Source: Gammaproteobacteria bacterium
GTDB lineage: Bacteria > Pseudomonadota > Gammaproteobacteria > GCA-001735895
Assembly: GCA_050288105.1 (NCBI GenBank)
Contig: JBNKDE010000013.1
Span: 3,519-67,518, forward strand
Reading direction: 5' to 3'
DNA: 64,000 bases
Below, in pieces: positions 3,929 through 53,358 of this stretch (its first letter is position 1; every line of letters starts with the position of its first letter). The notes beneath the pieces were generated by a model. That model searched no databases. It was not told the origin of the DNA and saw only the letters and a list, made by a program, of their open reading frames with translations. The position numbers and the translations under genes are program-made.

Positions 3929-4000
3929 AACCACAGAGAACACGGAGTACACAGAGTAAAATATTGTTTACCATTAAATACCTCTGTGCTCTCTGTGGTT
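3929..4000. repeat. Heptamer-TIR intergenic repeat (CACAGAG family) R1, between acnD and prpF
   Basis: Left end aaccacagagaacacggagtacacagag, right end cctctgtgctctctgtggtt. The ends form an inverted repeat around a short AT-rich core. Confidence 0.8.
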
Positions 4001-4011
4001 GATATGTTTTA

Positions 4012-6600
4012 TTACTGATTTGATTCCAGGAAGTCCTGTGCAAAGCGTTGCAGTACGCCACCAGCGGCATAGACATGGACTTCTTCCGCGGTATCCAGAC
4101 GGCAGGTAACCGGAATTTCTACGCGTTCACCATTGGCGCGGTTCATCACCACGGTGAGATCGGCACGTGGTGCGATGTCACCAATCACGTCATAGGTTTC
4201 GGTGCCATCGATGTTATACGTATGGCGATTTTCACCCGCTTTAAATTCCAGTGGCAGCACACCCATCCCGACCAGGTTGGTGCGATGGATACGTTCGAAG
4301 CCTTCAGCGACGATCGCTTCAACACCGGCCAGTCTGACCCCTTTGGCAGCCCAGTCACGTGAAGAGCCCTGACCATAATCTGCACCCGCGATAATGATCA
4401 ATGGCTGTTTACGTTGCATATAGGTTTCAATCGCTTCCCACATGCGGCTTTCGGTGCCTTCGGGTTCGATGCGTGCGAGTGAACCCTGTTTAATCTCGCC
4501 GTTCTCGTCACGACACATTTCATTCAGCAACTTCGGATTGGCGAAGGTGGCGCGCTGAGCAGTCAGGTGGTCACCGCGATGGGTCGCATAGGAATTAAAA
4601 TCTTCTTCCGGCAGGCCCATCTTATGCAGGTAGGCACCCGCAGCACTGTTTAACATGATCGCATTAGATGGAGACAGATGATCGGTCGTAATGTTGTCAC
4701 CCAGCACGGCCAGTGGGCGCATGCCTTTCATGGTGCGTTCACCCGCCAGTGCGCCTTCCCAGTAGGGTGGGCGGCGGATATAGGTACTTTGTGGACGCCA
4801 GTCGTAGAGTGGGCTCTTGGCTTCTTCCACCTGACCCAGGTCGAACATCGGATCATAGATTTGATGGAATTGTTCGGGTTTGACACTGCTGGCAACAATG
4901 GCGTCGATCTCTTCATCGCTGGGCCAGATGTCTTTCAGGGTAATGGGGTTGCCATCTTTGTCAGTGCCCAGTGCATCCTGTTCGATGTCGAAACGAATGG
5001 TGCCTGCAATCGCATAAGCAACCACCAGTGGCGGCGAAGCGAGGAATGCCTGTTTGGCGTAAGGATGGATACGGCCGTCAAAGTTACGATTCCCGGATAA
5101 CACGGCGGTGGCATATAGATCGCGATCGATGATTTCCTGCTGGATCTTTGGATCGAGTGCGCCGCTCATGCCGTTACAGGTGGTACAGGCGTAGGCGACG
5201 ATGCCAAAGCCCAGTTTTTCCATCTCGGATAACAGGCCAGCTTCTTCCAGGTAAAGCTTTGCTACCTTGGAGCCAGGCGCGAACGAGGATTTGACCCAGG
5301 GCTTGCGCAGTAGTCCCAGCTCATTGGCCTTACGCGCTACCAGACCGGCGGCGACGACATTGCGTGGGTTACTGGTATTCGTACAGCTGGTGATGGCAGC
5401 GATGATGACTGCGCCATCGGGTAATTCACCTTCCTTCTCTTCCCATTTACCGGCAATGCCTCGAGACTCAAGATCAGAAGTAGGCAGGCGTCGGTGTGGA
5501 TTAGATGGCCCTGCCATGTTGCGGCATACCGAAGATAAATCGAATTCCAGTACGCGCTCGTATTCAACATTGGCCAGGTCATCCGCCCACAGGCCAGTCA
5601 GTTTGGCGTATTGTTCAACCAGTGCGACCTGCTCGGGTTCGCGTCCGGTCAGCTTCAGGTAATCGATGGTTTGCTCGTCGATATAAAACAGGCCCGCGGA
5701 AGCGCCAAACTCGGGCGTCATGTTAGAGATGGTCGCACGGTCACCAATGGTCAGGTTAGCGGCGCCTTCACCGAAGAATTCCAGATAAGCAGAAACAACC
5801 CTCTCGTTACGCAGGAATTCGGTCAGAGCCAGTACGATATCGGTGGCAGTAATGCCGGGCTGGCGTTTACCCACCAGTTTGACGCCGATGATATCGGGCA
5901 GGCGCATCATCGAAGGACGACCCAGCATCACGGTTTCGGCTTCCAGACCGCCCACACCAATCGCAATAACACCCAACGCATCGACATGCGGGGTATGGCT
6001 GTCGGTGCCGACGCAGGTATCCGGATAAGCTACGCCGTCGCGGGTTTGTACCACCGGAGACATCTTTTCCAGGTTGATCTGGTGCATGATGCCGTTACCG
6101 GCCGGGATCACATCGACATTCTTGAATGCGGTTTTGGTCCATTCGATAAAATGAAAGCGGTCTTCGTTACGGCGATCTTCAATCGCGCGATTCTTTTCGA
6201 AGGCATCCGCCTCAAAGCCTGCGTGCTCCACCGCCAGCGAATGGTCGACGATCAACTGGGTGGGGACGACCGGGTTTACCTCGGCAGGGTCACCACCTTT
6301 GTCCGCGATTGCATCGCGCAGACCGGCCAGGTCCACCAGTGCAGTCTGGCCGAGGATGTCATGACAAACCACACGCGCCGGATACCAGGGGAAATCCAGG
6401 TCACGCTTGCGTTCGATCAGCTGCTTGAGCGAATCGGTCAGTGCCTCGGGCTCACAACGACGCACCAGCTGTTCAGCCAGCACGCGCGAAGTGTAGGGCA
6501 GTGTTGCATAGGCACCGGGCTGAATGTCTTCAATTGCGGCGCGCGTATCAAAATAATCGAGCTGGGTTTCGGGCAATGGCTTGCGGTATTGGGTATTCAT
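4012..6600 (-). CDS. acnD: Fe-S-dependent 2-methylcitrate dehydratase AcnD (aconitase family)
   Basis: 862 aa aconitase-family protein sitting in the classic AcnD+PrpF arrangement. Confidence 0.9.
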   Translation of the reverse strand: MNTQYRKPLPETQLDYFDTRAAIEDIQPGAYATLPYTSRVLAEQLVRRCEPEALTDSLKQLIERKRDLDFPWYPARVVCHDILGQTALVDLAGLRDAIADKGGDPAEVNPVVPTQLIVDHSLAVEHAGFEADAFEKNRAIEDRRNEDRFHFIEWTKTAFKNVDVIPAGNGIMHQINLEKMSPVVQTRDGVAYPDTCVGTDSHTPHVDALGVIAIGVGGLEAETVMLGRPSMMRLPDIIGVKLVGKRQPGITATDIVLALTEFLRNERVVSAYLEFFGEGAANLTIGDRATISNMTPEFGASAGLFYIDEQTIDYLKLTGREPEQVALVEQYAKLTGLWADDLANVEYERVLEFDLSSVCRNMAGPSNPHRRLPTSDLESRGIAGKWEEKEGELPDGAVIIAAITSCTNTSNPRNVVAAGLVARKANELGLLRKPWVKSSFAPGSKVAKLYLEEAGLLSEMEKLGFGIVAYACTTCNGMSGALDPKIQQEIIDRDLYATAVLSGNRNFDGRIHPYAKQAFLASPPLVVAYAIAGTIRFDIEQDALGTDKDGNPITLKDIWPSDEEIDAIVASSVKPEQFHQIYDPMFDLGQVEEAKSPLYDWRPQSTYIRRPPYWEGALAGERTMKGMRPLAVLGDNITTDHLSPSNAIMLNSAAGAYLHKMGLPEEDFNSYATHRGDHLTAQRATFANPKLLNEMCRDENGEIKQGSLARIEPEGTESRMWEAIETYMQRKQPLIIIAGADYGQGSSRDWAAKGVRLAGVEAIVAEGFERIHRTNLVGMGVLPLEFKAGENRHTYNIDGTETYDVIGDIAPRADLTVVMNRANGERVEIPVTCRLDTAEEVHVYAAGGVLQRFAQDFLESNQ

Positions 6601-7295
6601 TTTGTGGCCCTCTTGATGGCATTAATATGGTTAATTAGATTTTTTTCCAGATTGCGACGGGTGTATAAAATATGACGACGCATCAGAATTTCAGCCAGTT
6701 CGGCATCACGATTCGAAATGGCCTGAACGATTTGTTTATGCTCGTCGAACGCGGTAGTGATGCGCGGCCCGGCCATCCCCAACTGCACGCGGTACATGCG
6801 GATCAGGTGATAGATGCCATTCATCAATTCAGAAATCAGGTGGCGGTTTTTGCTACCGAGCATGATGCGATAATGAAAATCGACATCTCCAGCCTCCTGG
6901 TAATAGGTTTCGCCGCCTTTAACGGTCTGGAAATGGGTCGTTAACAAGGCGTTCAAATCGGAGATTTCGGTATCCGTCATATGCTCAGCGGCCAGGCGCG
7001 CGGCCATGCCTTCCAGCGCCTCCCGCACCTGGTACAGTTCACCCAGACCTTCGATAGTCAAAGCAACCACGCGATAACCGACATTAGCCTTGCGCTCGAC
7101 CAGATGGCAGGTCTCCAGTCGATTCAGAGATTCGCGTACCACGGCACGGCTGACGGCGTATTTTGTCGACAACTCGGTTTCACTCAGCTTGGAACCAGAC
7201 GCGATGACACCCTCAACAATATCCGACCGCAGCTGGATAAAGGTCTTATCCGCAACCGTTACAGGCTGATCGGTGAAGTGCAGGATCGATGTCAC
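6597..7295 (-). CDS. GntR-family transcriptional regulator, likely propionate-locus regulator
   Basis: GntR HTH followed by an FCD-like C-terminus. Its stop overlaps the acnD start. The probable start is GTG at 7293-7295, preceded by aggag; the longer ATG ORF reading is less likely. Confidence 0.75.
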   Translation of the reverse strand: MTSILHFTDQPVTVADKTFIQLRSDIVEGVIASGSKLSETELSTKYAVSRAVVRESLNRLETCHLVERKANVGYRVVALTIEGLGELYQVREALEGMAARLAAEHMTDTEISDLNALLTTHFQTVKGGETYYQEAGDVDFHYRIMLGSKNRHLISELMNGIYHLIRMYRVQLGMAGPRITTAFDEHKQIVQAISNRDAELAEILMRRHILYTRRNLEKNLINHINAIKRATK

Positions 7296-7315
7296 TGAGA
7301 TATCTCCTCGTTTAA

Positions 7316-7377
7316 TTGTCGACAATATAAGCAAATTTAGTCTCAAGTTCTACCCTTAAAGCCGATATTGTCGACAA
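7316..7377. promoter_or_regulatory. Two perfect TTGTCGACAA palindromes (7316-7325, 7368-7377) upstream of the GntR gene; candidate operator
   Basis: Both palindromes are visible in the sequence just upstream of the regulator RBS. Function is inferred. Confidence 0.45.
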
Positions 7378-7442
7378 AAGTTAAGAATGATTCTTTATAT
7401 ATTGAGAATTTTTTGCGTTTATTAGTAGGTTTTAAAAGAAAT

Positions 7443-7576
7443 TAACCACAGAGGACACCGAGAACACGGAGAATGATTAGATAGGTTATCAGGCGCTACT
7501 TAAAATTTTATTTATCTAAGCGACTCAGATTTAGAAAAACCAGAATACCTCTGTGCTCTCCGTGTCCTCTGTGGTT
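7443..7576. repeat. Heptamer-TIR repeat R2
   Basis: Left end taaccacagaggacaccgagaacacggag, right end cctctgtgctctccgtgtcctctgtggtt. Confidence 0.85.
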
Positions 7577-7619
7577 AAATTCTGTTAACGATGGAAAAAA
7601 TGTATCCGCAAAAGAATCT

Positions 7620-8081
7620 ATGAAAATTATTGAAGCTGATTATGCAGATCTGCCACAAGTCGCTGACCTGTTTCGTGAATATCAGCAGTTAATCGGTGTT
7701 GACCTGTGTTTTCAGGGCTTTGAAGAAGAACTGGCCAGCCTGCCGGGCAAGTATGCGCCACCAGCGGGAGCTATTTTCATTGCCATTGATAACAGCGAAT
7801 TGGTTGGTTGTGTGGCGATACGGCCCATCGATCAGCAACAGGCGGAGTTAAAGCGGCTTTATGTGAAACCGGCCTGGCACGGTCAGGGGATTGGCAAGCA
7901 GTTGTTTGAAACCGCCATGTCACGCGCGCAATCGATTGGGTATGGGAGTATTGTGCTGGATACGTTGGAGTCAATGCGCAGCGCTCGGGGGTTGTATCAG
8001 GGGTATGGATTTCGGGAGATTGAAGGGTATTATCATAATCCGGATTCGACGGCTAAGTTTTATCGGTATGATTTTGGGTGA
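7620..8081 (+). CDS. GNAT family N-acetyltransferase
   Basis: 153 aa with an acetyl-CoA binding motif (RLYVKPAWHGQGIGKQL). Confidence 0.8.
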   Translation: MKIIEADYADLPQVADLFREYQQLIGVDLCFQGFEEELASLPGKYAPPAGAIFIAIDNSELVGCVAIRPIDQQQAELKRLYVKPAWHGQGIGKQLFETAMSRAQSIGYGSIVLDTLESMRSARGLYQGYGFREIEGYYHNPDSTAKFYRYDFG

Positions 8082-8180
8082 TCGTTTTTTTGTTTTTTCA
8101 TTATTGGCGTCATCACGAGTACCTGAAGGGCATAAACTCGCGTGGCAATCTTATGGATTGTTAGTAACTGCCCGAATAGT

Positions 8181-8455
8181 GGTTTCACACGCTTACGCTT
8201 TCCTTGCTTCGTAGCGCCTGACGAGTACGCGTGCGAGCCCCTTTTTTGTTTGGCCAAAAAAGAGGCGCAAAAAAGGCCACCCCACCAAGCCCTTCATCGT
8301 CAAAATAGTGCCCAGATCGCGGTCGGCTCAGACGCGGGTCCAACCGCGCTGAGCCTCAAATGGCATCCCTGCCATTTGCCCCCGATCTGAACACCATTTT
8401 GCCGCGGGCTTGAAAGGGGGAATTAAGAAAAGATTTCAAGCAAAGCTTGAAATCT
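8181..8455 (-). repeat. Structured repeat element E2, copy 1, a relative of E1; ends with perfect hairpin agatttcaagcaaagcttgaaatct at 8431-8455
   Basis: Shares with E1 the module tttcacacgc...gcgtgcgag-cccttttt / aaaaaag...ggc and a ctcag...ctgag hairpin. Homologous to 43481-43780. Confidence 0.7.
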
Positions 8456-8460
8456 TTATT

Positions 8461-8745
8461 GTGTTTTTTTCCGCCCTTATTGAGTGCCGAAAATCGAGTC
8501 ATTTTGTAGGGTCAGCGCACATGGACGTGCGCTGAGGACAGTTGAGCAGGATGCGAATCTGTCCGTGCCCTGCAAAATGGCTTGATTTTCGGGGAGCCGC
8601 AGGCCACTCAATTGGGATGTCCTTTTTTTCGTCTCTTTTTTTGGACAAGCAAAAAAAGGGACTTGCACGCCTTTTAGAAAGATACTACGAAGCAAGGACA
8701 GCAAAGGCGTGTGAAACCATAATCCGGAAAGAACAAGAAAACTGA
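8461..8745 (+). repeat. Structured repeat element E1, copy B, truncated at both ends
   Basis: Roughly 80% identical to copy C and carries compensatory substitutions in its helices. It abuts the GST stop codon. Confidence 0.8.
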
Positions 8746-8755
8746 TAAAATTAAG

Positions 8756-9358
8756 TCATCCCTCCAACATAGGAATCCACCCCGGAATCCCTTCCACCCT
8801 CTCCAACCACCTCCGAACCGCAGGATATGGAGCCAGAGAAAAATCACCCTGATCGGCTAGCATGACATAGGGATAACAGGCAATATCCGCAATCGTCGGC
8901 TGCTCTGCCGCTAGCCAGTCGTGCTGGCTTAATTGGTTTTCCATCGCTATCACGCCTGGCTTCGCATCGGCGTGGCATGCTTCGAGATTGAATGGTCGCT
9001 TGAGTACCAGAGCGGCGCGCGCGCGAGCTAAACCGTATAACAATTCATTTTCCGATACTGCAAGCCATTGCATCACACGCGCTTCGCTGAGTGCATCTTC
9101 GGGCAGCCATTGTGTGCCGCCATAGCGACGTGCCAGGTACACCAGAATGGCCATCGAATCCCACAATAAATCATCACCGTCGACTAATACCGGTAGCTGC
9201 CCGCGAGGGTTTATTTGCTTGAACTCGGCGGTTAGCGTTTCGCCTTTAGCGATGTCGATAGGGATGGTTTCATAGTCCAGCTTTAGTATCGATAACATCA
9301 GACGAATCTTGTAGCAATTTCCGGAAAGCGGGAAGTCGTATAGTTTGATGGTAGACAT
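8756..9358 (-). CDS. Glutathione S-transferase
   Basis: 200 aa with GST N- and C-domain features. Confidence 0.8.
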   Translation of the reverse strand: MSTIKLYDFPLSGNCYKIRLMLSILKLDYETIPIDIAKGETLTAEFKQINPRGQLPVLVDGDDLLWDSMAILVYLARRYGGTQWLPEDALSEARVMQWLAVSENELLYGLARARAALVLKRPFNLEACHADAKPGVIAMENQLSQHDWLAAEQPTIADIACYPYVMLADQGDFSLAPYPAVRRWLERVEGIPGWIPMLEG

Positions 9359-9377
9359 GTTTGTTTTCTCACAAATG

Positions 9378-9779
9378 TTAGATGGCCTTTTTTTCTATTA
9401 ATCGCGATTTCTGTGTGCGTCCTTCAAATCCCCAGGCATCCGCACGAACATCATCCAGTACAATATAGCTGGCTGCGGTGAGGGGGCCCAGTATCTCCTG
9501 CAAGTCTGAAAAGACCGCTTTAATGTAACTCGCCTTCTGTTTTTTGGTATTAGTGCCTTCGGTGATTTTAACGTCCAGATAAAAGGTAATCTGCTGTTTG
9601 TCACTGACGGGTACGCCACCCACAAACCAGTGTCTTGGTCGGGTAAATTCAATATCGATTGCAGTGACTTCAGGCTTTTTACCAAGAATATCACGGGTAT
9701 GGGTCATCAGACAGGCAGCGATGCTTTCGGTGTGGGCTGATGATTCTGCAGCTGCGATACGTATATGTAGATAGGGCAT
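9378..9779 (-). CDS. Tautomerase-superfamily protein (4-OT/cis-CaaD-like, Pro1)
   Basis: Begins MPYLHIRI with Pro at position 2. 133 aa. Forms an operon with the GST, divergent from the LysR gene. Confidence 0.65.
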   Translation of the reverse strand: MPYLHIRIAAAESSAHTESIAACLMTHTRDILGKKPEVTAIDIEFTRPRHWFVGGVPVSDKQQITFYLDVKITEGTNTKKQKASYIKAVFSDLQEILGPLTAASYIVLDDVRADAWGFEGRTQKSRLIEKKAI

Positions 9780-9875
9780 ATGGATTTCCTCCAGTTATTG
9801 ACTCATTGGATAAACAGCGTAGTCTTACATGACTTATTAGAGAAACGATTTAATTGAATAACACCTATTCGAATT

Positions 9876-10739
9876 ATGAATACTAGAGACCTGAGTCCAG
9901 AGTTGTTACGTGCATTTGTCGCGGTTGTAGATGGGGGTGGTTTTACCCGGGCGGCTAATCGATTGAATAGTACGCAATCCACGGTCAGCCAGCAGCTTAA
10001 GCGCCTGGAAGAACGCCTGGGCGTAAGCCTGATGCAGCGTAATACCCGAGGCGTTGCATTGACTGAGCGAGGTGAGCTCATGCTGGGTTATGCCCGGCGA
10101 TTGCTGACGCTAAATGACGAAGCACTTACCGCACTGGAACAAACTCATCTTCGAGGGCGGGTACGACTGGGTTCAACCCAGGAAGTTGCCGATGGGGGGC
10201 TGGCTGATCTGCTGGCACGTTTTACCCGCCTGCATCCCGATGTCGAGCTGGAGATGCGAGTCGATAGTAATATGGCTTTACAGTATGAGGTTGAGCAGGG
10301 AGAGCTTGATCTGGCGGTTTTGTTTCAGGAGCCCGGTCAGGGTGCTCCTGGTAATGAAGTGATCGAGCGCCTGCGTCGGGTATGGGTGTCAGCACCGGGG
10401 CTGGTCATTAACCCGGATGAACCGTTGCCACTTATTCTTTCCAACGGCCCCTGTATTTTTCGCAATTCGGTATTGTCAGCACTGGATAGCATTGGTCGAC
10501 CCTGGCGTATTGTGCTTTCTACCCCTAGCCTTGCTGGAATACGTGCCGGAGTGCGCGCAGGCTTGGGTGTTTGTGTGCGCAGTGAACGCTGGCTGGAAGC
10601 CGATATGGAAATCATCGATCAGGGCCTGCCCCCGTTACCGGATGTCGAGCTTGCCATTATGTGTGGCGCAAAAACGGGCGAAAGTGTGGTTGAGCGATTA
10701 CGCATTGCCTTGCGTGGGGCACTGAGTCAGGCGGCATGA
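9876..10739 (+). CDS. LysR-family transcriptional regulator
   Basis: HTH (FTRAANRLNSTQSTVSQQLKRLE) plus a substrate-binding domain. Confidence 0.9.
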   Translation: MNTRDLSPELLRAFVAVVDGGGFTRAANRLNSTQSTVSQQLKRLEERLGVSLMQRNTRGVALTERGELMLGYARRLLTLNDEALTALEQTHLRGRVRLGSTQEVADGGLADLLARFTRLHPDVELEMRVDSNMALQYEVEQGELDLAVLFQEPGQGAPGNEVIERLRRVWVSAPGLVINPDEPLPLILSNGPCIFRNSVLSALDSIGRPWRIVLSTPSLAGIRAGVRAGLGVCVRSERWLEADMEIIDQGLPPLPDVELAIMCGAKTGESVVERLRIALRGALSQAA

Positions 10740-10752
10740 GTTCAAAAGACTG

Positions 10753-10967
10753 ATTAACCACGAAGAGCATGAAGAAAAACATTTTAACCACAGATTAGGG
10801 CAGGAAGCCCGTAAGTAGGGCAACGCAGGACGCAGTTGCCGAGGACACAGAGAACACGGAGAAGTGTGGTGTGGGATATTTTGAGGTATAAATTATCCAG
10901 TCAAACCAAGAGGTTCAATTTTAGGAAAATACAAAAACCTCTGTGCTCTCTGTGTCCTCTGTGGTTA
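10753..10967. repeat. Composite heptamer-TIR repeat R3, with embedded module-2 (agggcaggaagcccgtaagtagggcaacgcaggacgcagttgcc)
   Basis: ttaaccacgaag and ttaaccacag on the left, cctctgtgctctctgtgtcctctgtggtt on the right. Confidence 0.8.
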
Positions 10968-11056
10968 AAGAAGCGCGTTCAGGTTATTTGAAAATCAGGT
11001 TGATAGCCCAAGGTAGATTCGGCACTATCGTGATTTTCATTTCGCATGGAAGATAA

Positions 11057-11737
11057 TTGATGCAAACCATTCTGTTAATTGAAGACGAATCGACCATTGC
11101 CGATATGGTGCTTTATGCACTACGCAGTGAAGGTTTTATCGCTGAATGGAAACGTCTGGGGCGCGAAGGAGTTGCCTGGTTGCAGGCTAATCCAGATACG
11201 GCTTTGGTGGTGCTTGATATCGGATTGCCGGATGGCAATGGCTTTGAATTCTGCAAGGAGATTCGGCGCTTTTCTGAAGTGCCTATAATTTTTCTAACGG
11301 CACGTAACGACGAAGTAGATCGTATCGTCGGCCTCGAAATTGGAGCCGATGATTATATGGGCAAGCCGTTTAGTCCTCGTGAACTGACAGCCCGGATTAA
11401 GGTGATTCTTAAACGGAGTCGCGCAAGTGCGGAACCGAGCGCGGCCACGTCCACATTTGAAATTGATCAGGATCGTTACCGCATTCGCTATCACGATATC
11501 TGGCTCGATCTAACGCGTTATGAATTCCAGATACTTAAGACACTACTACAGCAACCAGGGCGTGTTTTTTCGCGTGAGCAAATTATGGATCAGGCCTGGC
11601 AGCAGCCGGAGGAAAGCCTGGAGCGTGTGGTCGATACGCACATCAAAAAGTTGCGGGTTAAATTACGTCAGGTTCGCTCGGATGAAGATCCGATTCAAAC
11701 ACATCGTGGTATAGGTTACAGCATCCGTGAATCTTAG
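11057..11737 (+). CDS. creB: OmpR-family response regulator CreB
   Basis: Receiver domain plus winged helix, first gene of a creB-creC-creD cluster. Confidence 0.8.
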   Translation: MMQTILLIEDESTIADMVLYALRSEGFIAEWKRLGREGVAWLQANPDTALVVLDIGLPDGNGFEFCKEIRRFSEVPIIFLTARNDEVDRIVGLEIGADDYMGKPFSPRELTARIKVILKRSRASAEPSAATSTFEIDQDRYRIRYHDIWLDLTRYEFQILKTLLQQPGRVFSREQIMDQAWQQPEESLERVVDTHIKKLRVKLRQVRSDEDPIQTHRGIGYSIRES

Positions 11738-13172
11738 CGTTCGCATCTTTATAGGCTTTTTTGTATTGACAGGTTTTGCCATCTGGCTGGCGATGCGAAG
11801 TTTTACCGCAGAGCTGGTGCCGGGTATGCGCCAGTCTATGGAAGAAATGCTGGTCGATAGTGCCAATCTGATGGCAGAGCTGGTCGCACAGGAAGTCATA
11901 GAGGGTAGCTTACAAACCGGTCAGTTCAAAAAAGCCATGAGCGCTTTTGAGCAACGTAGATTTGAAGCGAGAATCTGGTTCCTGAAAAAGCGCGACCCCA
12001 ATCTGATTATCTATATTACTGATGTGAACGGTATGGTGATCTATGATTCTCGCGGTCTTGATTTAGGCAAAGATTATTCGCAGTGGAACGATGTCTACAA
12101 CACCCTGCGCGGAAAGTACGGGGCGCGCACAACACGCGCTGATCCCGACGATGAATTCAGTAGCATCATGTATGTGGCTGCACCAATAAAAAATGAGCGT
12201 GAGATTATTGGCGTGGTCACAGTGGGTAAACCCAGTGTGGCTGTGCAACCCTTTGTAGAGCGCGCTCAACAGAATATCCAGGAAAAGGGTGGGCTGGTGA
12301 TTCTGGGCGCACTGGCTATAGGTTTGATGATTACCTACTGGCTCACCTTTTCCATTCGCAAATTAACTAGCTATGCACTGGCCGTACGCGATGGCAAAAG
12401 AGTCGCGCCACCAAAGCTGGGTGAAAAAGAACTGGCGCAACTGGCGGATGCGATGGATGCGATGCGGCGCGAACTCGAAGGCAAGGATTATGTAGAGCAA
12501 TATCTGCATAGCCTGACGCATGAATTAAAGACCCCGCTGGCTGCTATTCAGGGTACTGCCGAGCTGTTAGAAGAGGATATGCCGGAACAGGACAGGCAGC
12601 ATTTTATTGCCAACATTCGGGGACAGGCCCGGCGTTTACATCAGGTGGTAGAACAGTTACTGCGTCTGGCATCGATAGAAAAACAGCAGGGGCTGAGAAA
12701 TCCTGAATTGGTTCAGGTCGATGAACTGATGCGTGACCTGTGGCAGGAACGTCACTGGCGTATCCAGCAGAAAAATCTAACGCTTAATGATACCGAACTG
12801 AATCCGATTAAACTTACCGCAGAACGGTTTTTACTACAGCAGGCTATTGGCAATCTGCTGGACAATGCGATTGAATTTAGTCCTGCAGGATCGACGATAG
12901 AGTTAGCAAGCGTTGATAAGGATGGAGATCTGGAATTAAGCGTTGCAGATGAGGGGCCGGGCATCCCCGACTTTGCACTGGCTCGTGTTTTCGAGCGGTT
13001 TTACACCTTAGCGAGGCCAGAGGATGGTAGCAGTAGCAGCGGACTGGGTCTGAGTTTTGTCTACGAGGTTGCTCAATTGCATGGTGGAAAAATCGAACTG
13101 GAAAACCGAGAACAGGGTGGGGCTATTGCCAAACTTACGCTGCCATTGAAGCAACAGCCACCATCTGCCTGA
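11727..13172 (+). CDS. creC: Sensor histidine kinase CreC
   Basis: Two TM segments, H-box HSLTHELKTPLAAIQG and an HATPase domain. Its start overlaps the creB end. Confidence 0.8.
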   Translation: MNLSVRIFIGFFVLTGFAIWLAMRSFTAELVPGMRQSMEEMLVDSANLMAELVAQEVIEGSLQTGQFKKAMSAFEQRRFEARIWFLKKRDPNLIIYITDVNGMVIYDSRGLDLGKDYSQWNDVYNTLRGKYGARTTRADPDDEFSSIMYVAAPIKNEREIIGVVTVGKPSVAVQPFVERAQQNIQEKGGLVILGALAIGLMITYWLTFSIRKLTSYALAVRDGKRVAPPKLGEKELAQLADAMDAMRRELEGKDYVEQYLHSLTHELKTPLAAIQGTAELLEEDMPEQDRQHFIANIRGQARRLHQVVEQLLRLASIEKQQGLRNPELVQVDELMRDLWQERHWRIQQKNLTLNDTELNPIKLTAERFLLQQAIGNLLDNAIEFSPAGSTIELASVDKDGDLELSVADEGPGIPDFALARVFERFYTLARPEDGSSSSGLGLSFVYEVAQLHGGKIELENREQGGAIAKLTLPLKQQPPSA

Positions 13173-13269
13173 ATGTGTTTTTTGTGTGTGCAAACACACA
13201 TATTGACCACATCATCAAAACATAAACAGCGTTTAAGGTATGTCGGGTATTTAATTAATGGAGATCCCG

Positions 13270-14631
13270 ATGAAAAACCTGTTTAGTAAAAAAATAGTTG
13301 TTATTACTGTACTCACCCTATTACTACTAATCCCACTAATGATGATTAGAGGCGTGATTGATGAGCGTAGTGGTTATAGATACCAGGTACGTAACGATAT
13401 CACGCAAAGCTGGACCGGCGAACAAATGATGATTGGCCCAATTCTGGTAATTCCCTACAGGGAAATCTATCAGGTAAGTGTGTGGAATAAAAAGTTAGAA
13501 AAGGATGAGATAGAAAACAGAGTGCTGAATAAAAAACTGATGATAGCACCCGAGCAATTAAGCATTAATGGTAACGTTAAAACAGAAAGCAGGGTGAGAG
13601 GGATATACAGCATTCCGGTATATCGCAGTCAATTAAATATCTCAGGTAATTTCTCGGTTGCCAAACTGACCGCACAGGTGAATAGCAGCAATACCATTGA
13701 ATGGGAACCCGCCTATCTATCTGTTATGGTGAATGACGTGCGCGGTGTTGAAAAACAGCCAGTAGTATCATGGCAGGGCAAAAAAATTGAATTCGAACCG
13801 GATAGCCTGCTTGGAGAATTGAGAAACGGCATGCATGCACCGCTGGGCGTTGTTAAGCAAAGTGATGAAAATCTGGCATTCAGTTTTGATCTTGATCTAC
13901 ATGGCATGGAAAGATTGAAATTTTCCCCATTGGGAAAAAGTACCTCAGTCACCCTGAAATCAGACTGGCCTGATCCCAGTTTTATCGGGCGCTACTTACC
14001 CTCAGAAAGACTGATCAATGAGAATGGTTTTACAGCCAGCTGGAATGTTTCCTCCTTTTCCAGTTCGGTAGCGCAAAACCTGCAGTCATGTAAAACAGGT
14101 AGTTGTTCATCACTGGCTAATGACATGTTTGGTGTCACGCTGTTTAATTCAGTCGATATCTATCAGCAAAGCGAACGCTCGGTGAAATATGGGCTGCTAT
14201 TTATTGGGCTCACATTTGTCGTGTTCTTTCTGTTTGAAGTGATAAAAGGACTGCGTCTGCATCCCATGCAGTATCTGTTAGTCGGACTTGAATTAAGCGT
14301 TTTCTTTTTATTACTGGTGTCACTATCTGAGCTAATGGCATTTGCAATGGCATATCTGATAGCAACATTGGCATCGACCGCTTTGATCGGTTTTTATGTG
14401 AGCAGTATTTTGCAGTCATATAAACTGGGAGGATTTATCAGTGCGGGGTTATTGCTGCTGTATGGAATGCTCTACGGTATTTTAGGTTCTGAAGACAATG
14501 CTCTGTTAATGGGGTCAATGTTGATATTCAGCGTGCTTGCTCTGGTTATGACAGTAACCCGCCGTATTGACTGGTATGAGTTAAGTGCTAGTCCGATGAG
14601 TCGAGAGGGAAATATAGCTATTGATTCCTGA
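13270..14631 (+). CDS. creD: Inner-membrane protein CreD
   Basis: About 450 aa multi-TM CreD-like protein downstream of creC. Start chosen at MKNLFSK, preceded by ggaga. Confidence 0.75.
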   Translation: MKNLFSKKIVVITVLTLLLLIPLMMIRGVIDERSGYRYQVRNDITQSWTGEQMMIGPILVIPYREIYQVSVWNKKLEKDEIENRVLNKKLMIAPEQLSINGNVKTESRVRGIYSIPVYRSQLNISGNFSVAKLTAQVNSSNTIEWEPAYLSVMVNDVRGVEKQPVVSWQGKKIEFEPDSLLGELRNGMHAPLGVVKQSDENLAFSFDLDLHGMERLKFSPLGKSTSVTLKSDWPDPSFIGRYLPSERLINENGFTASWNVSSFSSSVAQNLQSCKTGSCSSLANDMFGVTLFNSVDIYQQSERSVKYGLLFIGLTFVVFFLFEVIKGLRLHPMQYLLVGLELSVFFLLLVSLSELMAFAMAYLIATLASTALIGFYVSSILQSYKLGGFISAGLLLLYGMLYGILGSEDNALLMGSMLIFSVLALVMTVTRRIDWYELSASPMSREGNIAIDS

Positions 14632-14728
14632 CAGGTCTTAAGTAATTATTGGTGCATGGACGCACCATATAATAAATTTATTGACACCGAGGGCTCTCCC
14701 CGTGAGTGAAAAATCGCAACTAGTTTTA

Positions 14729-15238
14729 ATGGCAAAATACAACCAGCTAATGAACCAGCGTATGATTGAAGCAGCGGGAAATCTATCGCCAGCGACATTA
14801 GCCGAAGATAAAGGCGCTTTTTTTAAATCGGTGATAGGCAGTCTGAATCATATTATGGTGGGCGATATTCTATGGATGAAGCGATTTGCATCTCACCCTG
14901 GTAATTATCAATCATTGCAGAAACTTGAAGGATTTGAAATGCCGCAAGGACTAAATGCAATACTATTTGATGATTTATCAACCTTTGCAAAAGTAAGAGC
15001 AAAGCTGGATGACAACCTGATTGAATGGTGTGATGAATTGAATGAATCTGACCTGGACACAGCGCTAAGATATCAGGATACCAAAGGTGTACAGCATGCC
15101 AAAAGGTTTGGTGATTTGATTTTGCATTTATTCCTTCATCAGATACATCATAGAGGTCAGATAACCACTTTACTGTCACAGGAGAGTATTGATTTTGGTG
15201 ATACAGATTTGCCGGAGATTGTGCCTGAACTGGGATAA
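14729..15238 (+). CDS. DinB/YfiT-family (DinB_2) metal-dependent protein
   Basis: Spaced His motifs (HIMVGD, HLFLHQIHHRGQ). ATG start chosen; the track ORF begins at an upstream TTG. Confidence 0.65.
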   Translation: MAKYNQLMNQRMIEAAGNLSPATLAEDKGAFFKSVIGSLNHIMVGDILWMKRFASHPGNYQSLQKLEGFEMPQGLNAILFDDLSTFAKVRAKLDDNLIEWCDELNESDLDTALRYQDTKGVQHAKRFGDLILHLFLHQIHHRGQITTLLSQESIDFGDTDLPEIVPELG

Positions 15239-15249
15239 GCCATGCCTTT

Positions 15250-15378
15250 GTTTCCTACAGAGTACACAGAGAACTTAGGTGCAGAATTTTTGAGGTATAA
15301 ATTATTCATTTAACACGAAGACGCTTAATGATAGGAAAATACAGAAAAACTCCGTGCTCTCCGTGTCCTCTGTGGTTT
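15250..15378. repeat. Heptamer-TIR repeat R4, left end partially truncated
   Basis: Left cctacagagtacacagagaac, right ctccgtgctctccgtgtcctctgtggttt. Confidence 0.75.
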
Positions 15379-15456
15379 AACATTTTTTAAGTTTTTTTAC
15401 CTTCGTTTGACAATTTTCCTAATGGTCGACCCATTAGTTGAGGTCAATGCAGATCT

Positions 15457-16578
15457 TCACAGCCAGAATTTCCACCACCAGTTGAAGTACTCTTTTACAA
15501 TCCGCATGGTCAACCAATCGACTGCTTCCATTGAGCCAGTGCCAGAGCCCGCATTTGTCATGATGATAAAAGCAAAATCTGATTCCGGAACAATGATCGA
15601 ACGGCAGAAGAAGGTCCCCGCAGAACCATCAAACCCGGAGTATCGCTTGCCCCCCAATACGCCGTTAACCACACCGAGTGAGAATCCGGCATGACCGAAA
15701 TGAATATGGTGATATGTTTTGCTGGAAATGTAGTTGTCATTACCCCTCAAGCCGCGCAAGTGTAATTGAGTGTATTTTGCGTAGTCCCTGGGTGTCATGC
15801 TCAAATCCCCCGCTGGAGTAATCAAGCAGGGGAGCTTGTAGTCATGCTCAGGTGGTAATGGCTCGACTTTGTCTTTAGTAATCGTGTGGCCCCATGGTTG
15901 ATCAACACCAATGCTGTTAGGCCAGCCAAAATGGACTGATAGGCCCAGGTCATCAGTCAATGTCCTCCTTGCAAGATCCTCATAGCTGAGGCCCGATAGT
16001 CTTTCGAGCATTGCGGATGCCATTGTGTAACTCGCATTGGAGTACAAATGCTGAAACTTGCCATCCTGCTTTTTTGACGCAGGTGGTTGCGTGATCAGAT
16101 AGTTAACAAATTCTAATCTTTTGTCGCTGACCGATGACTCATAGTCTGGGAAAGGCTCTGTCTCTGCGTTCGTATATGCCTTGATTCCTGCCTCGCAAAG
16201 AAACAGGTCTTCCAATGAAATATCACTATACGCGGTATTTGCGGAAGCTTTCAGCTCCGGGAAAACATCGAAGAATCTCGTTTGCCACGTAATCTTGTTC
16301 TGCTCTATGAGTTTTGCCGCCATCACGGCTAGCACGGATTTCGAACAAGACCCAATGTGAAAATAGTCATCGAGTGTGGATTTGTCCGGCTTGTCAACTA
16401 CTCGTACCCCCTGGACTTCCTGGAGATAAATCGCGTCCACGTTCATTACAGAAACAGCAATCGCGGGAACTTTGAAGTTCTCTCTTGCTTTGCTCACGAG
16501 TTCAGACAAGTACGCCTGTGTTAAGCGTGAATTCTGAGGGTGTTCAATTTGCAGTTGATTCATCAGCATTCCGTCCAT
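15457..16578 (-). CDS. Serine hydrolase, beta-lactamase family
   Basis: SxxK motif (GSCSKSV); 373 aa. Confidence 0.7.
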   Translation of the reverse strand: MDGMLMNQLQIEHPQNSRLTQAYLSELVSKARENFKVPAIAVSVMNVDAIYLQEVQGVRVVDKPDKSTLDDYFHIGSCSKSVLAVMAAKLIEQNKITWQTRFFDVFPELKASANTAYSDISLEDLFLCEAGIKAYTNAETEPFPDYESSVSDKRLEFVNYLITQPPASKKQDGKFQHLYSNASYTMASAMLERLSGLSYEDLARRTLTDDLGLSVHFGWPNSIGVDQPWGHTITKDKVEPLPPEHDYKLPCLITPAGDLSMTPRDYAKYTQLHLRGLRGNDNYISSKTYHHIHFGHAGFSLGVVNGVLGGKRYSGFDGSAGTFFCRSIIVPESDFAFIIMTNAGSGTGSMEAVDWLTMRIVKEYFNWWWKFWL

Positions 16579-16835
16579 GAAAAGGTTATTTAATAGAAGC
16601 TATGCAACCGCTCCTCTCTGGATAACGCTAACAGCGTAGGTTTATCCTGCTGCCTGTACCTGTTAACTTGAGTAATAGTACAGATATTGCATTAAGTAGC
16701 CAAGATTGAACAACAAATGCAGGCCAGGGAGATTAAAGGGGCGGAGTGAATAAATGTTGACAATCGCATGGTTGGAAGAGCGGATTGGGAAAAAACCAGG
16801 CCAGTTACATTACGGAAGGCCTGGTAAGAAGATGT

Positions 16836-17219: not shown

Positions 17220-17398
17220 AGTTTATCCTACAGTTAATTTTGTCGGGTTTGTAAGATGGCAACAAATTTATTCCATTCTCGGTATACAAAACGTTAGCTT
17301 AAAAGGTGAGCGCCACAGCTCTCACCGAAATGGCACGTACAGTGCCATGAGTCCTTTTGAATCCCTTGTTAACCATTTACTCAACATCGCAATACAAA

Positions 17399-17764: not shown

Positions 17765-17861
17765 AATTAGGGTTAACGACTAGCTCACCTGACAAAAAGC
17801 GCGAAGCGGTTTTTGGTCAGCTGAAGCGCCGTGTTATGTGAAATGCGTACAGAAAACATAA

Positions 17862-18732: not shown

Positions 18733-18739
18733 TATTTAT

Positions 18740-38877: not shown

Positions 38878-38886
38878 CTGGCTTTT

Positions 38887-39161: not shown

Positions 39162-39212
39162 CAAATTAACCAAGAGATCTTCTAAGCACACTCGGTGGTG
39201 TAACGCCACTGT

Positions 39213-43480: not shown

Positions 43481-43780
43481 GATTTCACACGCTGAAAACT
43501 TTTCTCGCTCTGTAGTTAAGTCGTGCCTGCGTGCGAGTAACTTTTCAGGCATGAAAAGTCACCAAAAATGCTTTCCCAACAGTCCCTTCTTCCGTCAAAA
43601 GCACAGCCAAATCGCGGTCGGGGCAGACGCGTTCCTGACGCGACTGCCCCTAAATTCGCTTCCCTGCGAATTTACCCCGATTTGACTGCACTTTTGCCGC
43701 GGGTCTGGATGGGGTTTAAAAAACAGAGATTTCAAGCACAGCTTGAAGTCTCAAGAAACTCAAGTTTCAAGATCTGATCC
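43481..43780 (-). repeat. Structured repeat element E2, copy 2; ends with hairpin agatttcaagcacagcttgaagtct at 43727-43751
   Basis: Collinear with 8181-8455: tttcacacgc...gcgtgcgag..., cgtcaaaag...atcgcggtcggGGcagacgcg...cgcgaCTgCCcc, ttttgccgcggg. Confidence 0.7.
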
Positions 43781-43965: not shown

Positions 43966-44430
43966 ATGTCGTTATCTGTATATTCTGCTGCACAAAGATT
44001 AGCGGAGAAATCCGGTTGGTCTCTGTCAAATTTAGAGATTCAGAAATTGCTGTACTTGGCGCATATGTTTCATATGGGCGAGCACGAAGAGCCTTTGGTA
44101 AATGAACATTTTGAGGCTTGGGATTACGGCCCAGTTCAACCCGATCTTTATCATAAGCTGAAAATTTACGGCTCTTCTCCAGTGAAACATATTTTCACCC
44201 GCACAAAACCATTCGATGAAGGATCTGAAACGGAAATTATCGACAAAACTGTAGACCAGCTTTCACATCGAGCGGCTGGATGGCTGGTCGCTGCTACGCA
44301 CTGGGACAAAGGCGCGTGGGCTAAATACTATGAGCCTGGCACGAAAGGAATAATTATTCCTAATTCTGAAATCCAACAGGAATATAGAGATAGAGTAGAT
44401 GCACTCAGAAGAAGACAAGCCACCATTTGA
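43966..44430 (+). CDS. Panacea-domain (DUF4065, SocA/PanA-like) putative antitoxin
   Basis: 154 aa. The conserved YLAHMFHMGEHEEPLVNEHFEAWDYGPVQPDLY region matches my recollection of the Panacea family. Preceded by ggagg. Confidence 0.6.
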   Translation: MSLSVYSAAQRLAEKSGWSLSNLEIQKLLYLAHMFHMGEHEEPLVNEHFEAWDYGPVQPDLYHKLKIYGSSPVKHIFTRTKPFDEGSETEIIDKTVDQLSHRAAGWLVAATHWDKGAWAKYYEPGTKGIIIPNSEIQQEYRDRVDALRRRQATI

Positions 44431-44743
44431 TCAACTGGACGATCTTCTTTATGAAGAACCGAGCAAGACAGATCAGCAGATATCTGCCCTTGAAAAGCAA
44501 CTAGAGTACGAACGCGATGCCAGGATGGAAGATCGATTTGTATTTATCGTGATAATAGTCCTTTTATTGGATATCGTTTTCTTTTCTGTTATGCCTACTT
44601 TCGGTGGCCCGCTAGCGCTACTAATCCTGGAACTTATAATTTTGATACCGCTGGCCCGAAAGATGGGAATGGAAGAACTTGCCGCAATATTTCATGGAGT
44701 TGTATCCCGTATGGCTGGAAGAGCAAATGATGCTGATGATTAA
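44399..44743 (+). CDS. Small two-TM membrane protein, candidate toxin partner
   Basis: 114 aa overlapping the upstream gene by 32 nt. Hydrophobic segments FVFIVIIVLLLDIVFFSV and LALLILELIILIPLA. Confidence 0.45.
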   Translation: MHSEEDKPPFDQLDDLLYEEPSKTDQQISALEKQLEYERDARMEDRFVFIVIIVLLLDIVFFSVMPTFGGPLALLILELIILIPLARKMGMEELAAIFHGVVSRMAGRANDADD

Positions 44744-50079: not shown

Positions 50080-50107
50080 CGAGTCAGCGCTTAAAACAAT
50101 TAAAGCG

Positions 50108-50443
50108 AAACGTGAATGCAACTTTTGGTTTTATCTCCCCTTCTGGAGTGCCGAAAATGGGGCCATTTAGTAAGGTCAGCGCACAGGGACGTGCGCTGAG
50201 GACAGTCGAGCACGGATGCGAGTCTGTCCGTGCCTTGCTAAATGGTTCGATTTTCGGGAAGCCGCAGGCCGCTCCAGTGGGGCGCCCTTTTCTTTCGTCT
50301 CTTTCTTTTGGGCGAGCAAAAGAAAGGGACTCGCACGCCAGCCAGGAAGATACTACAAAGCCAGGAAAGCTAAGGCGTGTGAAATTCTACACGATCAGAA
50401 ACAACAAACTTCAAAACGCTCCACAACAGGCTGAGTTTGGTGG
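50108..50443 (+). repeat. Structured repeat element E1, copy C (most complete)
   Basis: Helices: 50151-50175 pairs with 50233-50258; hairpin 50176-50199; hairpin gtctctttcttttg/caaaagaaagggac at 50297-50330. Confidence 0.8.
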
Positions 50444-50500: not shown

Positions 50501-50519
50501 TTTAAGAGAGTAACCTGCT

Positions 50520-52655: not shown

Positions 52656-52659
52656 GAGC

Positions 52660-53166
52660 ATGAAAATGAAATACTATTTTTTAAAATACTTTCTTATTAT
52701 TTCATTGCTTCTAGTCCAGGGCTGTACCCATACCCTGTATCAGGGTGATCTGGTTGGCCCCAATAACCTTGACCAGCAACAGAGTTTTAGATTGTGGTGG
52801 ATAAAGACCAGTCTGTTTTCAAAAGAGAAAGGGGATGGCAGTATTCGGCTGGATACGGGTTGTGCACGCTATGGATTTACCGAATCAGATCAGGGTTTAA
52901 CCATGGAATTACCTGCCGATCAATTTCATAGTATCGACCCCCAGACTGGTGATCATTTGACCTGTGGCAGGATTACCAACCTGAAACGTATACGGGAGTT
53001 TGATCAAGGAGAGGTAATGGTGGAAACTTATTGTGCGCCGCTGAATGACGGCTTTAGTGTGGTGAAAAAAACGCTGCCCAAAATTGGCGTGACACATAAG
53101 TTTGTGATTCAGAGTAAAGAAATCGATAAGGTGGATTTTTCTCCCGAGCCCTTGCCCTGTAATTAA
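52660..53166 (+). CDS. Hypothetical lipoprotein
   Basis: Lipobox LLLVQGC. 168 aa, 4 nt downstream of the hydrolase gene. AT-rich. Confidence 0.55.
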   Translation: MKMKYYFLKYFLIISLLLVQGCTHTLYQGDLVGPNNLDQQQSFRLWWIKTSLFSKEKGDGSIRLDTGCARYGFTESDQGLTMELPADQFHSIDPQTGDHLTCGRITNLKRIREFDQGEVMVETYCAPLNDGFSVVKKTLPKIGVTHKFVIQSKEIDKVDFSPEPLPCN

Positions 53167-53217
53167 TATTTTTATCATACTTAAGATTGTGCTGATCTAC
53201 AGACTTTAAAGAGAATA

Positions 53218-53358
53218 TTCACCACCGAGGACACAGAGTTCACGGAGGTTAAAAGCTCAATTTTAAATTCAGAAGGCTTGTGCAATATTGAAACGTGAAT
53301 TCAATAAAATAAGAATAATAATCAGGTAAATGATTTTCTCAGTGAACTCTGTGGTGAT
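53218..53358. repeat. Heptamer-TIR repeat R8
   Basis: Left ttcaccaccgaggacacagagttcacggagg, right ctcagtgaactctgtggtgat. Confidence 0.75.

Follow-up and report, generated by a model that had tools for sequence, protein, structure and literature searches.

What kind of element is a short repeat that recurs every few kilobases between genes and folds back on itself? The question is raised by a 64,000-nt stretch of DNA (the window) from a gammaproteobacterium (assembly GCA_050288105.1, contig JBNKDE010000013.1, positions 3,519 to 67,518 of the forward strand). The window holds eight non-coding, hairpin-forming repeats, numbered E1 to E8 in window order, together with one miniature copy, and every one of them is intergenic. 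An earlier note on this DNA had listed eight copies, intergenic and at a density of about one per 8 kb; all eight were found, their limits were refined, and the density was borne out at ~1 per 7–8 kb. The pattern is real and highly non-random. With up to one mismatch allowed, CACRGAGNNCACRGAG matches 28 times in the window (expectation, 0.08), a count that none of 100 shuffles attains. Counted window-wide, 21 of 28 single CACNGAG heptamers and 22 of 31 CTCNGTG heptamers fall within elements. We put a probability of roughly 0.45 on reading this repeat as a dispersed foldback element comparable to REP (repetitive extragenic palindromic) sequences and to MITEs, the miniature kind of transposable element with inverted repeats. 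Its arms would be arrays of putative protein-binding sites, it would change by slippage in 9-bp steps and by recombination between arms, and it would settle after stop codons.

Design of the arms and what is conserved in them

The repeat unit is a 9-mer, consisting of the heptamer CAC[A/G/C]GAG and two free bases, with 2–4 units per arm in the window. Arms made of this unit are termed type-B, and those made of a sister unit, CACGAAG, type-A. The left arm is laid out as (T)TAAC-CACAGAG-NN-CACRGAG-NN-CACRGAG and the right arm is its reverse complement, closing in GTGG-TTAA, such that the outer end of each arm is TT[A/C][A/G]C. Each arm is a direct 9-mer array, (CACNGAGNN)n, with no self-complementarity within one arm; three-unit arrays of two unit sequences are written (CACAGAGGA)3 and (CACGAAGGA)3. 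Between the arms lies an AT-rich, variable core of 25–124 nt. The window copies have traits of the MITE type, namely terminal inverted repeats, small size and no coding capacity. When the window was pooled with 120 cellular loci from the scan described below, the resulting 82 paired elements had arms of 2–5 units and cores of 10–298 nt, and 423 of their 442 unit pairs were spaced by 9. The terminus, TTMRC-CAC, has C at position −1 in 145 of 163 cases. The earlier description of the ends as built from heptamers needs correction, as the period is that of the 9-mer.

To ask which part of the arm is held constant, partner arms were located by their terminal unit alone, which leaves the inner units unselected. 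In the next unit of these arms, heptamer positions are 81–85% consensus (about 1.1 bit), and the spacer positions carry 0.2–0.5 bit and are merely pyrimidine-biased. Within an element, left and right spacers agree only slightly above the level of shuffled pairs (0.41 vs 0.36; 0.45 vs 0.34). For the 46 elements with exactly one gene reading into the element, mismatches on the transcribed strand are no more often G·U than A·C: heptamers have 11 of the former and 14 of the latter, spacers 22 and 17. Because the heptamers are conserved, the spacers are free and there is no G·U bias, selection or homogenisation acts on the heptamer and its register, arm by arm and symmetrically between strands. Base pairing of the transcript is not what it acts on. 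The arms are indeed inverted, as the view of them as terminal inverted repeats had it, but the conserved feature is the heptamer in its 9-bp register and not the complementarity of the arms. Between sister strains the heptamers diverge by 2.0% (4/198) and the cores plus flanks by 4.8% (42/884), a comparison of small numbers.

These results bear on the idea that the repeats work at the RNA level, as terminators, attenuators or 3' exonuclease barriers that set how strongly genes of one operon are expressed relative to each other and stabilise the upstream mRNA, as REP does in E. coli. The predicted stems are strong: five of six copies folded as RNA form long stems (dG −31 to −53 kcal/mol, z −4.4 to −7.7), in agreement with the hairpin-forming ends proposed earlier, and E4 alone folds weakly (z −2.0). 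Their position is also suggestive, with elements 0–35 nt from stop codons and inside operons (acnD|prpF in the window, pdhA|pdhB in Geobacter). In the cellular loci an open reading frame (ORF) stop lies <15 nt from the CCAC terminus at 34 of 166 element sides and <35 nt at 66 of 166. Sequence outside the left end of the 82 paired elements is A-rich and that outside the right end T-rich, as in bidirectional terminators. However, the spacers do not co-vary, G·U is not favoured on the transcribed strand, and a structure alone would not call for one specific heptamer in many phyla. Solo arms, which we describe below, cannot fold. Placement at gene 3' ends or inside operons, as the earlier note had it, applies to most window copies, the majority of which directly trail a stop codon and one of which, E1, lies in acnD|prpF, but E2 sits in the promoter region between divergent genes.

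Furthermore, element loops (25–124 nt in the window, 10–298 nt overall) and the lack of a T-run directly after the stem do not agree with an intrinsic terminator, for which we looked for a G+C-rich stem, a loop of 3–8 nt and a T-run at ≤2 nt. A simple terminator scan of positions 3000–22000 flagged 0 of the 6 copies there among 19 sites found, a site count at chance level, and so lends no support to the termination role that had been suggested. Rfam gave no match at the gathering score, and at a permissive threshold gave chance matches to miRNA hairpins only (E ≥ 0.33). On balance, we consider a primary function in RNA to be quite unlikely. Under the foldback reading, the hairpin, once transcribed, may form a 3'-end barrier or, in operons like acnD|prpF, an attenuator. 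Since the elements abut stop codons and lie within operons, they can affect transcript ends and gene calls.

Copying and recombination among related strains

Related assemblies were retrieved through exact-protein look-ups. In a strain ~95% identical to the window, E1, E2, E4, E5 and E7 are found at the same sites, and E1 is present at the orthologous site in GCA_050295535.1. The E2 ortholog in a further relative (locus L124) differs in its arms at a single N4 position only, N4 being position 4 of the heptamer. E7 and its counterpart in the sister strain differ by whole 9-bp units, with one more unit each in A-left, A-right and B-left. Arms gain and lose whole 9-bp units, and as unit number varies between ~95% identical strains, the repeats could serve as typing markers.

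Whole elements, including their cores, are the unit of copying within the genome. The cores of E2, E3 and E4 (repeat family D6) are 74–81% identical, from which it follows that whole elements, and not arms alone, were duplicated. In addition, recombination joins arms of different elements, giving mosaics that are nested, tandem, interleaved or hybrid. Downstream of the LysR gene that precedes E3, nested, tandem and truncated arrangements were observed in four relatives: type-B nested within type-A (L250), type-B and type-A in tandem (L252 and L253), and A-left, B-left, A-right (L124). At the same place the window has A-left, B-left with an insert that we call module C, and B-right. The composite A-left/spacer/B-left/A-right occurs at the LysR locus in one species and at the GntR|acetyltransferase locus in another. 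Because the same composite, with homologous spacers, is present at two loci of two species, composites appear to be copied as units. Overall, two loci show whole type-A and type-B elements arranged differently among relatives, and no empty site was seen.

Repeats also mark recombination junctions, as is exemplified by a strain-specific segment near prpC. Positions 18917–20877 are missing from GCA_050295535.1 and GCA_050295135.1. The segment is flanked by a type-A arm at 18656–18734, just right of E5, and by E6, which lies inside it; on the right side, homology to the sister strains restarts just beyond the terminal GTGGTTAGA of a repeat arm. The earlier note had proposed that E5 and E6 flank a mosaic insertion and that the repeats may shape genome rearrangement. 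The two elements do bracket a segment missing in two related assemblies, and the terminus of a repeat arm marks its junction. On either side of the segment is a copy of the prpC 3' end (18741–18916 and 20884–21059, 91% identical). Its content, besides E6, is a 389-aa ORF without a Pfam hit (19193–20362) and a LysR gene fragment (20464–20724) that is 71% identical to 10470–10730.

Distribution across phyla and candidate readers

How far the repeat extends was addressed with a one-genome-per-species scan using CCACNGAGNNCACNGAGNNCACNGAG, which returned at least 120 loci, where about 4–5 matches would be expected by chance in 596 Gb at uniform base composition. By record titles, at least 18 phyla are represented among the matches listed, including Acidobacteriota, Planctomycetota, Chloroflexota, Verrucomicrobiota, Chlamydiota, Bacteroidota, Gemmatimonadota, Cyanobacteria, Firmicutes, Spirochaetota and, within the proteobacteria, several classes; the carriers include Shewanella metallivivens and Iodobacter arcticus. 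A scan of a viral collection likewise gave at least 120 loci. The earlier note had named absence of the pattern beyond the window as a ground for refutation; this clearly does not apply, since the pattern is abundant far outside it, both in viral contigs and in 18 or more phyla. BLAST with an idealised arm identified copies in Bacteroides finegoldii, Bacteroides ovatus, Nostoc, Gemmatirosa and Pseudoalteromonas, all of them unannotated, with 15–24 places per megabase replicon in Gemmatirosa. An arm query had no match across 5,426 E. coli genomes, and cultured phage records gave weak matches only.

Arms without a partner are common. Solo and paired counts are 79 vs 145 in cellular loci and 163 vs 34 in viral loci. 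Viral arrays occupy short gaps between co-directional genes and are more often in the CACNGAG-sense orientation (68 vs 40 with a stop codon upstream, 53 vs 37 with a start codon downstream), a modest bias among arms that are non-independent within a contig. In one viral contig (L186, IMGVR_UViG_3300031565_000084, 10076–13342, minus strand), five solo arrays lie upstream of phage genes, with three at 4–31 nt before an ATG and a tandem pair preceding one gene. They read TTAGCCACAGAGAGCACAGAGGACACAGAG, TTAGCCACAGAG ag CACAGAG ga CACAGAG, and close variants. We regard the orientation bias and these start-codon arrays as a lead, not a result. One L186 gene is also trailed by an opposite arm and comes to lie inside a 545-bp 'element', and cases akin to L186 occur in L137, L135, L176 and L200. 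Mimicry of the Shine-Dalgarno or anti-Shine-Dalgarno sequence was considered since phage solo arms end 1–15 nt before start codons; the case for it is weak, since 75% of units have A at N4, giving AGAG and not GGAG.

Other units are used in the same way. CACGAAG arrays recur in four cellular loci, and in other phyla elements with different units are nested around or inside CACAGAG elements (L034, about 860–1000; L035, about 1750–1956; L079, about 450–700 and 1720–1960). The units of these nested elements are ACGCGGAG and CACAGAGN, both repeated every 8 nt, and CACGGA plus five spacer bases, repeated every 11 nt. Such elements of the same design suggest a wider superfamily.

The surprising part is that one heptamer in a 9-bp register, unexplained by pairing, recurs across phyla. 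REP sequences, bacterial interspersed mosaic elements (BIMEs), enterobacterial repetitive intergenic consensus (ERIC) sequences and MITEs are usually lineage-specific and co-evolve with a local enzyme, whereas this heptamer spans at least 18 phyla as well as phage contigs. Its carriers include the well-studied genera Bacteroides, Geobacter, Shewanella and Nostoc, and it is not in Rfam. Searching the literature by sequence (CACAGAG, CCACAGAG, CTCTGTGG, TTCACCACAGAG and similar) returned primer noise only, and work on Shewanella MITEs, Bacteroides repeats and prokaryotic foldback elements yielded no description of this repeat. The family is very widespread and, going by the literature searched, essentially uncharacterised, with an earlier sighting only in a Geobacter supplementary figure.

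That sighting concerns Geobacter metallireducens, in which class 2 predicted global regulator binding sites (Gmet_I2xxA/B) were reported (Aklujkar et al., 2009, BMC Microbiol 9:109, PMC2700814). There are 21 opposite-strand pairs at variable distance, each site having three tandem repeats with the consensus TCTCCGTS[Y], and four of the sites are hybrids that include an 8-mer array of class 1. The pairs lie 3'/3' or 3'/5' of genes (0 of 13 examined pairs are 5'/5'), one of them between pdhA and pdhB. The sites were proposed to bind IHF or HU and called unique to that genome, and no experiment is reported. An IS110-family insertion sequence, ISGme8, occurs between class 1 pairs and uses class 1 sites as its target; it is the only insertion sequence linked there to the Geobacter sites (PMC2700814).

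Compared by consensus and legend, the class 2 sites resemble the window repeat closely. The reverse complement of our unit, NNCTC[T/C/G]GTG, fits TCTCCGTS[Y]; in both genomes opposite-strand arrays at variable distance are intergenic, 3' of genes or inside operons; and hybrids with a second repeat class parallel the mixing of type-A and type-B arms in the window. Unlike the Geobacter sites as printed, for which the unit is CACGGAG and the other class an 8-mer, GTTGCTYN, the commonest unit of the window is CACAGAG and its sister class is the CACGAAG 9-mer. What is new beyond the 2009 report is the wide distribution, the polymorphism in unit number and the insert.

Judged by their defining features, REP, ERIC, classical MITEs and intrinsic terminators all fail to fit the repeat. 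It shares with REP, BIME and REPIN elements its existence as a high-copy extragenic hairpin repeat without target duplication, after stop codons or inside operons, in mosaic clusters whose units alternate in orientation (PMC3333891, PMC3733652). REP is also a target of IS110-family insertion sequences, a likeness that runs through the Geobacter class 1 sites. A REP unit, however, is an imperfect palindrome with a GTAG/CGTC tag and differs between species along with its REP-associated tyrosine transposase (RAYT), while the heptamer here is one across phyla. Because its arms are direct 9-mer arrays and not palindromes, and lack the GTAG/CGTC tag, the repeat is not REP. ERIC has an enterobacterial 127-bp consensus and is carried by E. 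coli; the repeat is not ERIC because its arm sequence has no match in the 5,426 E. coli genomes, a comparison in which the ERIC consensus itself was left unaligned. The earlier label, REP/ERIC-like, is apt as an analogy (position after stop codons, an operon copy, mosaics, a junction) but fails as a family assignment, given the missing tag and palindrome and the absence from E. coli.

Bacterial MITEs (Correia, ERIC, Nezha and others) are similar in their size of 75–280 bp, in having inverted ends around an AT-rich non-coding core, in lying between genes and in being copied as whole elements, and differ in that here there is no target-site duplication, no parent insertion sequence was found, and the ends are tandem arrays with free spacers. 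In the Foldback and Galileo elements of Drosophila, inverted ends of short tandem repeats hold several transposase sites (PMC3688188). These elements are eukaryotic and kilobase-scale, with a THAP-domain transposase and target duplications, so the resemblance is one of design only.

A classical MITE would be an internally deleted DDE insertion sequence of the IS630/Tc1 or IS5 type, the transposase of which binds sub-terminal repeats and the parent of which resides elsewhere in the genome. This would account for the terminal inverted repeats, the defined terminus, the small size, the AT-rich non-coding core and the many copies, and the Foldback/Galileo architecture (PMC3688188) is comparable. 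Its signature was sought in 65 elements, for duplications of 2–9 bp at offsets 0–9, and no target-site duplication was found: nothing stands clearly above permutation expectation, with exact matches ≤3 per cell at 4–6 bp and no common offset. The outer TTAA/TTCA/TTAG was considered as a target duplication and rejected, as it belongs to the inverted repeat and is not a direct repeat. Nor did an enzyme appear. Window ORFs, checked directly or through precomputed Pfam hits, contain no transposase (IS630/Tc1, RAYT or other) and no Y1/HUH domain. Nine arm pairs 400–5000 bp apart, from about 245 loci, enclose housekeeping, phage or unassigned genes and no transposase. Taking these pairs as full-length transposons was rejected; L069, for example, comprises two separate elements around trmB-like and SDR genes. 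The only insertion sequence tied to the Geobacter sites is of the IS110 family and targets class 1 sites (PMC2700814). We therefore judge a classical MITE very unlikely.

The search for a cognate protein was extended to the loci themselves. When the ORFs of the 120 cellular loci were compared all against all, no protein family recurred, the largest cluster covering 7 loci, and no RAYT did. The same comparison of the 120 viral loci returned ordinary phage proteins only, with cluster representatives that look by eye like terminase, portal, tail-fibre and helicase. The RAYT or IS630/Tc1 transposase that the earlier note had suggested as a partner was thus encountered neither among the window ORFs checked nor between the long-range arm pairs.

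What, then, might read the arrays? Protein binding sites are the simplest account of the arrays because the register is strict, the heptamer is conserved with free spacers, the terminal unit is distinct and solo arrays exist. Each array would be a row of putative binding sites for one sequence-specific protein, either a mobilising enzyme that acts without target duplication (HUH/RAYT-like or recombinase-like) or a conserved host DNA-binding protein. The elements would be kept chiefly as selfish or neutral DNA in the one position that tolerates them, a short way downstream of stop codons.

Several known sites were compared with the unit and set aside by inspection. The DnaA box (TTAACCACA vs TTATCCACA) is rejected in that position 4 is never T; CIRCE, parS half-sites, the LexA box, sigma-54/sigma-70 promoters and the Xer arm were rejected likewise.

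A host protein need not imply mobility. The arrays could be regulatory or architectural sites, operators of a chromosomal DNA-binding protein (IHF/HU) or of one of the ribbon-helix-helix type, which would bind short tandem repeats cooperatively, and would be kept for DNA organisation or gene control. Such arrays are bound by MetJ, which takes 8-bp boxes, and by the omega repressor, which takes 7-bp heptads. The conserved heptamer and 9-bp register with free spacers and no RNA-strand bias would agree with this, as would the solo arrays, the L186 arrays upstream of genes (three of them 4–31 nt before a start codon), the stability of copies at orthologous sites and the same proposal made for G. 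metallireducens (PMC2700814). Yet the neighbouring genes share no function, and most copies follow stop codons instead of lying at promoters, with 0 of 13 examined Geobacter pairs 5'/5'. Nesting, interleaving and composites at unrelated loci look mobile or recombining; the unit has, by eye, no IHF consensus (WATCAANNNNTTR); and no candidate protein was found. Host sites of this kind, without mobility, seem to us unlikely.

A dispersed foldback repeat with putative site arrays for arms remains our preferred reading, and a number of observations weigh against it. Neither the window ORFs, the 120 cellular loci nor the long-range arm pairs revealed a cognate protein, and the elements tested lack a target-site duplication. 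Among the relatives compared, there is no clean filled-vs-empty allele for any whole type-A or type-B element, and there is no sign of recent movement since E1, E2, E4, E5 and E7 are shared with the ~95% identical strain. Solo arms are common, so it may not be the hairpin as such that functions. The contrast in heptamer divergence between sister strains rests on just 4 substitutions. Finally, one heptamer conserved across phyla is unlike REP/RAYT and could point to a conserved host factor or function.

A broader proposal, which we make tentatively and consider doubtful, is that of a cross-phylum class of elements read by one putative protein family. This family would recognise the heptamer in its strict 9-nt register and would be a mobilising enzyme without target duplication, or a conserved factor acting on DNA or transcripts. 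Cellular hairpins and phage start-codon solo arrays would then be two uses of one code, and the sister units (CACGAAG and the 8-/11-nt-period variants) parallel specificities. If a single reader protein exists, it would be either a mobilising enzyme that is very widespread and has gone unrecognised, or a DNA-/RNA-binding factor, itself conserved, with hundreds of sites per genome.

Copies in the window, their insert and other features

The first copy, E1 (3927–4002), is of type-B, with a left arm of 3 units (3932–3956), a core of 25 nt and a right arm of 2 units (3982–3997). It separates acnD and prpF, both on the minus strand, 11 nt past the acnD stop (dG −31.4, z −6.5). E2 (7442–7578, type-B) has 3 + 3 units, ends TTAACCAC...GTGGTTAA and a core of 77 nt, and is located between the divergent genes for a GntR-family regulator and an acetyltransferase (dG −53.2, z −7.7). 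E3 (10754–10968) is a composite that begins immediately past the LysR stop codon (TGA) and is made up of a solo type-A left arm (10759–10774, CACGAAG ag CATGAAG), a type-B left arm that module C interrupts, and, beyond a core, the right arm, also of type-B (10939–10963). E4 (about 15251–15379, type-B) lies between convergent genes and has a degenerate left arm (TACAGAG ta CACAGAG) and a right arm of 3 units.

E5 (18418–18577) is of type-B with ends TTAGCCACCGAG...CTCTGTGGTGAA, and within its core is a type-A arm in degenerate form, including what looks like a remnant of module C (about 18477–18540). The type-A right arm to its right (18656–18734, minus strand) reads CTTCGTA at CTTCGTG tg CTT|...|TTCGTGG. 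E6 (20742–20876, type-B, 4 + 3 units; repeat families D1 and D3) is next to prpC, and its terminal TTAA contains the stop codon of the LysR-like gene fragment. E7 (38886–39163) is an interleaved composite of A-left (38890–38954), B-left (38985–39009), A-right (39089–39105) and B-right (39134–39159). Close by, the miniature copy (39166–39205) has one unit per side, TTAACCAAGAG-14 nt-CTCGGTGGTGTAA, also written AACCAAGAG..CTCGGTGGT; the sister strain reads CCACGAG on its left side. E8 (53218–53358), of type-B with 3 + 2 units, ends TTCACCAC...GTGGTGAT and an AT-rich core of 90 nt, separates two co-directional genes (dG −38.7, z −4.4).

A second module interleaved with the repeat had been described at three of these places. 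It is present, but as a composite of two things: the CACGAAG sister arms and the 46–47-nt insert. The type-A arms (10759–10774, 18656–18734, 38890–38954 and 39089–39105) share the outer end TTAACCAC. Module C is 46–47 nt, TTAGGGCARGRAYGCCCGTAAGTAGRGCAACGCAGGA(C)GCAGTTGCC, and interrupts the first heptamer after CCACN-RA, with the RA dinucleotide recurring behind it. Its first copy (10795–10840, plus strand, 46 nt, TTAGGGCAGGAAGCCCGTAAGTAGGGCAACGCAGGACGCAGTTGCC) is within the first heptamer of the B-left arm of E3 (CCACA-GA^...^GA-G). The second (18677–18723, reverse complement, 47 nt) is within the type-A right arm beside E5, and the third (38897–38942) within the A-left arm of E7. The RA flanks are GA/GA in E3, AA/AA at 18.7 kb and AA/GA in E7.

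At the 18.7-kb locus, where the window has module C, two related assemblies have an uninterrupted, empty arm, CTTCGTGATCTTCGTGTGCTTTGTGGTTAGA. At the LysR locus module C is present in the window, L252, L253 and L257, and L250 has an intact arm of 3 units with no insert. As filled and empty alleles exist at two loci, module C behaves as an insertion. A metagenome scan identified it in 18 contigs of 36–55% G+C, and in 7 of these unrelated contigs it occupies the corresponding position within the first unit of an arm of the CACAGAG type.

The insert has a structure of its own. Two places show this, one downstream of LysR in L252/L253 (about 6190–6280 in L252) and the other in the GntR|acetyltransferase spacer of L252/L255: one copy holds a further ~33-nt insert, and elsewhere module C is followed by extra copies of a ~20-nt sub-unit, TAGGGC[AG]A[AC]GCA.GA..CC, an internal repeat structure. 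A second kind of small insert within arms is present in two genera: a 13-nt mini-hairpin, CAG(C/T)GCGAAGC(G/A)C, takes the place of two spacer bases between right-arm units in Pseudoalteromonas shioyasakiensis (L249, about 3100–3140) and Shewanella metallivivens (L090). Its GCGAAGC motif is known as a very stable DNA mini-hairpin. The small dispersed repeats of heterocystous cyanobacteria, reportedly described by Elhai and colleagues in Genome Research in 2008, are like module C, and module C only, in their size of tens of nt, their hairpins, their insertion within other repeats and their filled and empty alleles. They reportedly differ in sequence and in length, at 21–27 nt against 46–47 nt.

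The window also contains an unrelated repeat of ~300 bp in three copies, at 2220–2565 (minus), 8440–8727 (plus) and 50098–50443 (plus). Its mean column identity is 80%, one pair is 94% identical over 245 nt, and it has an internal hairpin, CAGCGCAC..GTGCGCTG. With no Rfam match and no convincing ORF found in it, it may be another mobile or RNA element. Separately, a perfect 13-bp stem with a 3-nt loop (AAAGATTTCAAGC AAA GCTTGAAATCTTT) followed by a T-rich tail was noted (8429–8457 and 43722–43751), with a terminator score on both strands; a related copy of this hairpin spans 43702–43751 (72% over 50 nt). The ORF at 43966–44430 has a SocA/Panacea antitoxin domain (PF13274, E = 3.6e-16), and together with the overlapping downstream ORF at 44399–44743, which is without a family match, it may form a toxin-antitoxin pair.

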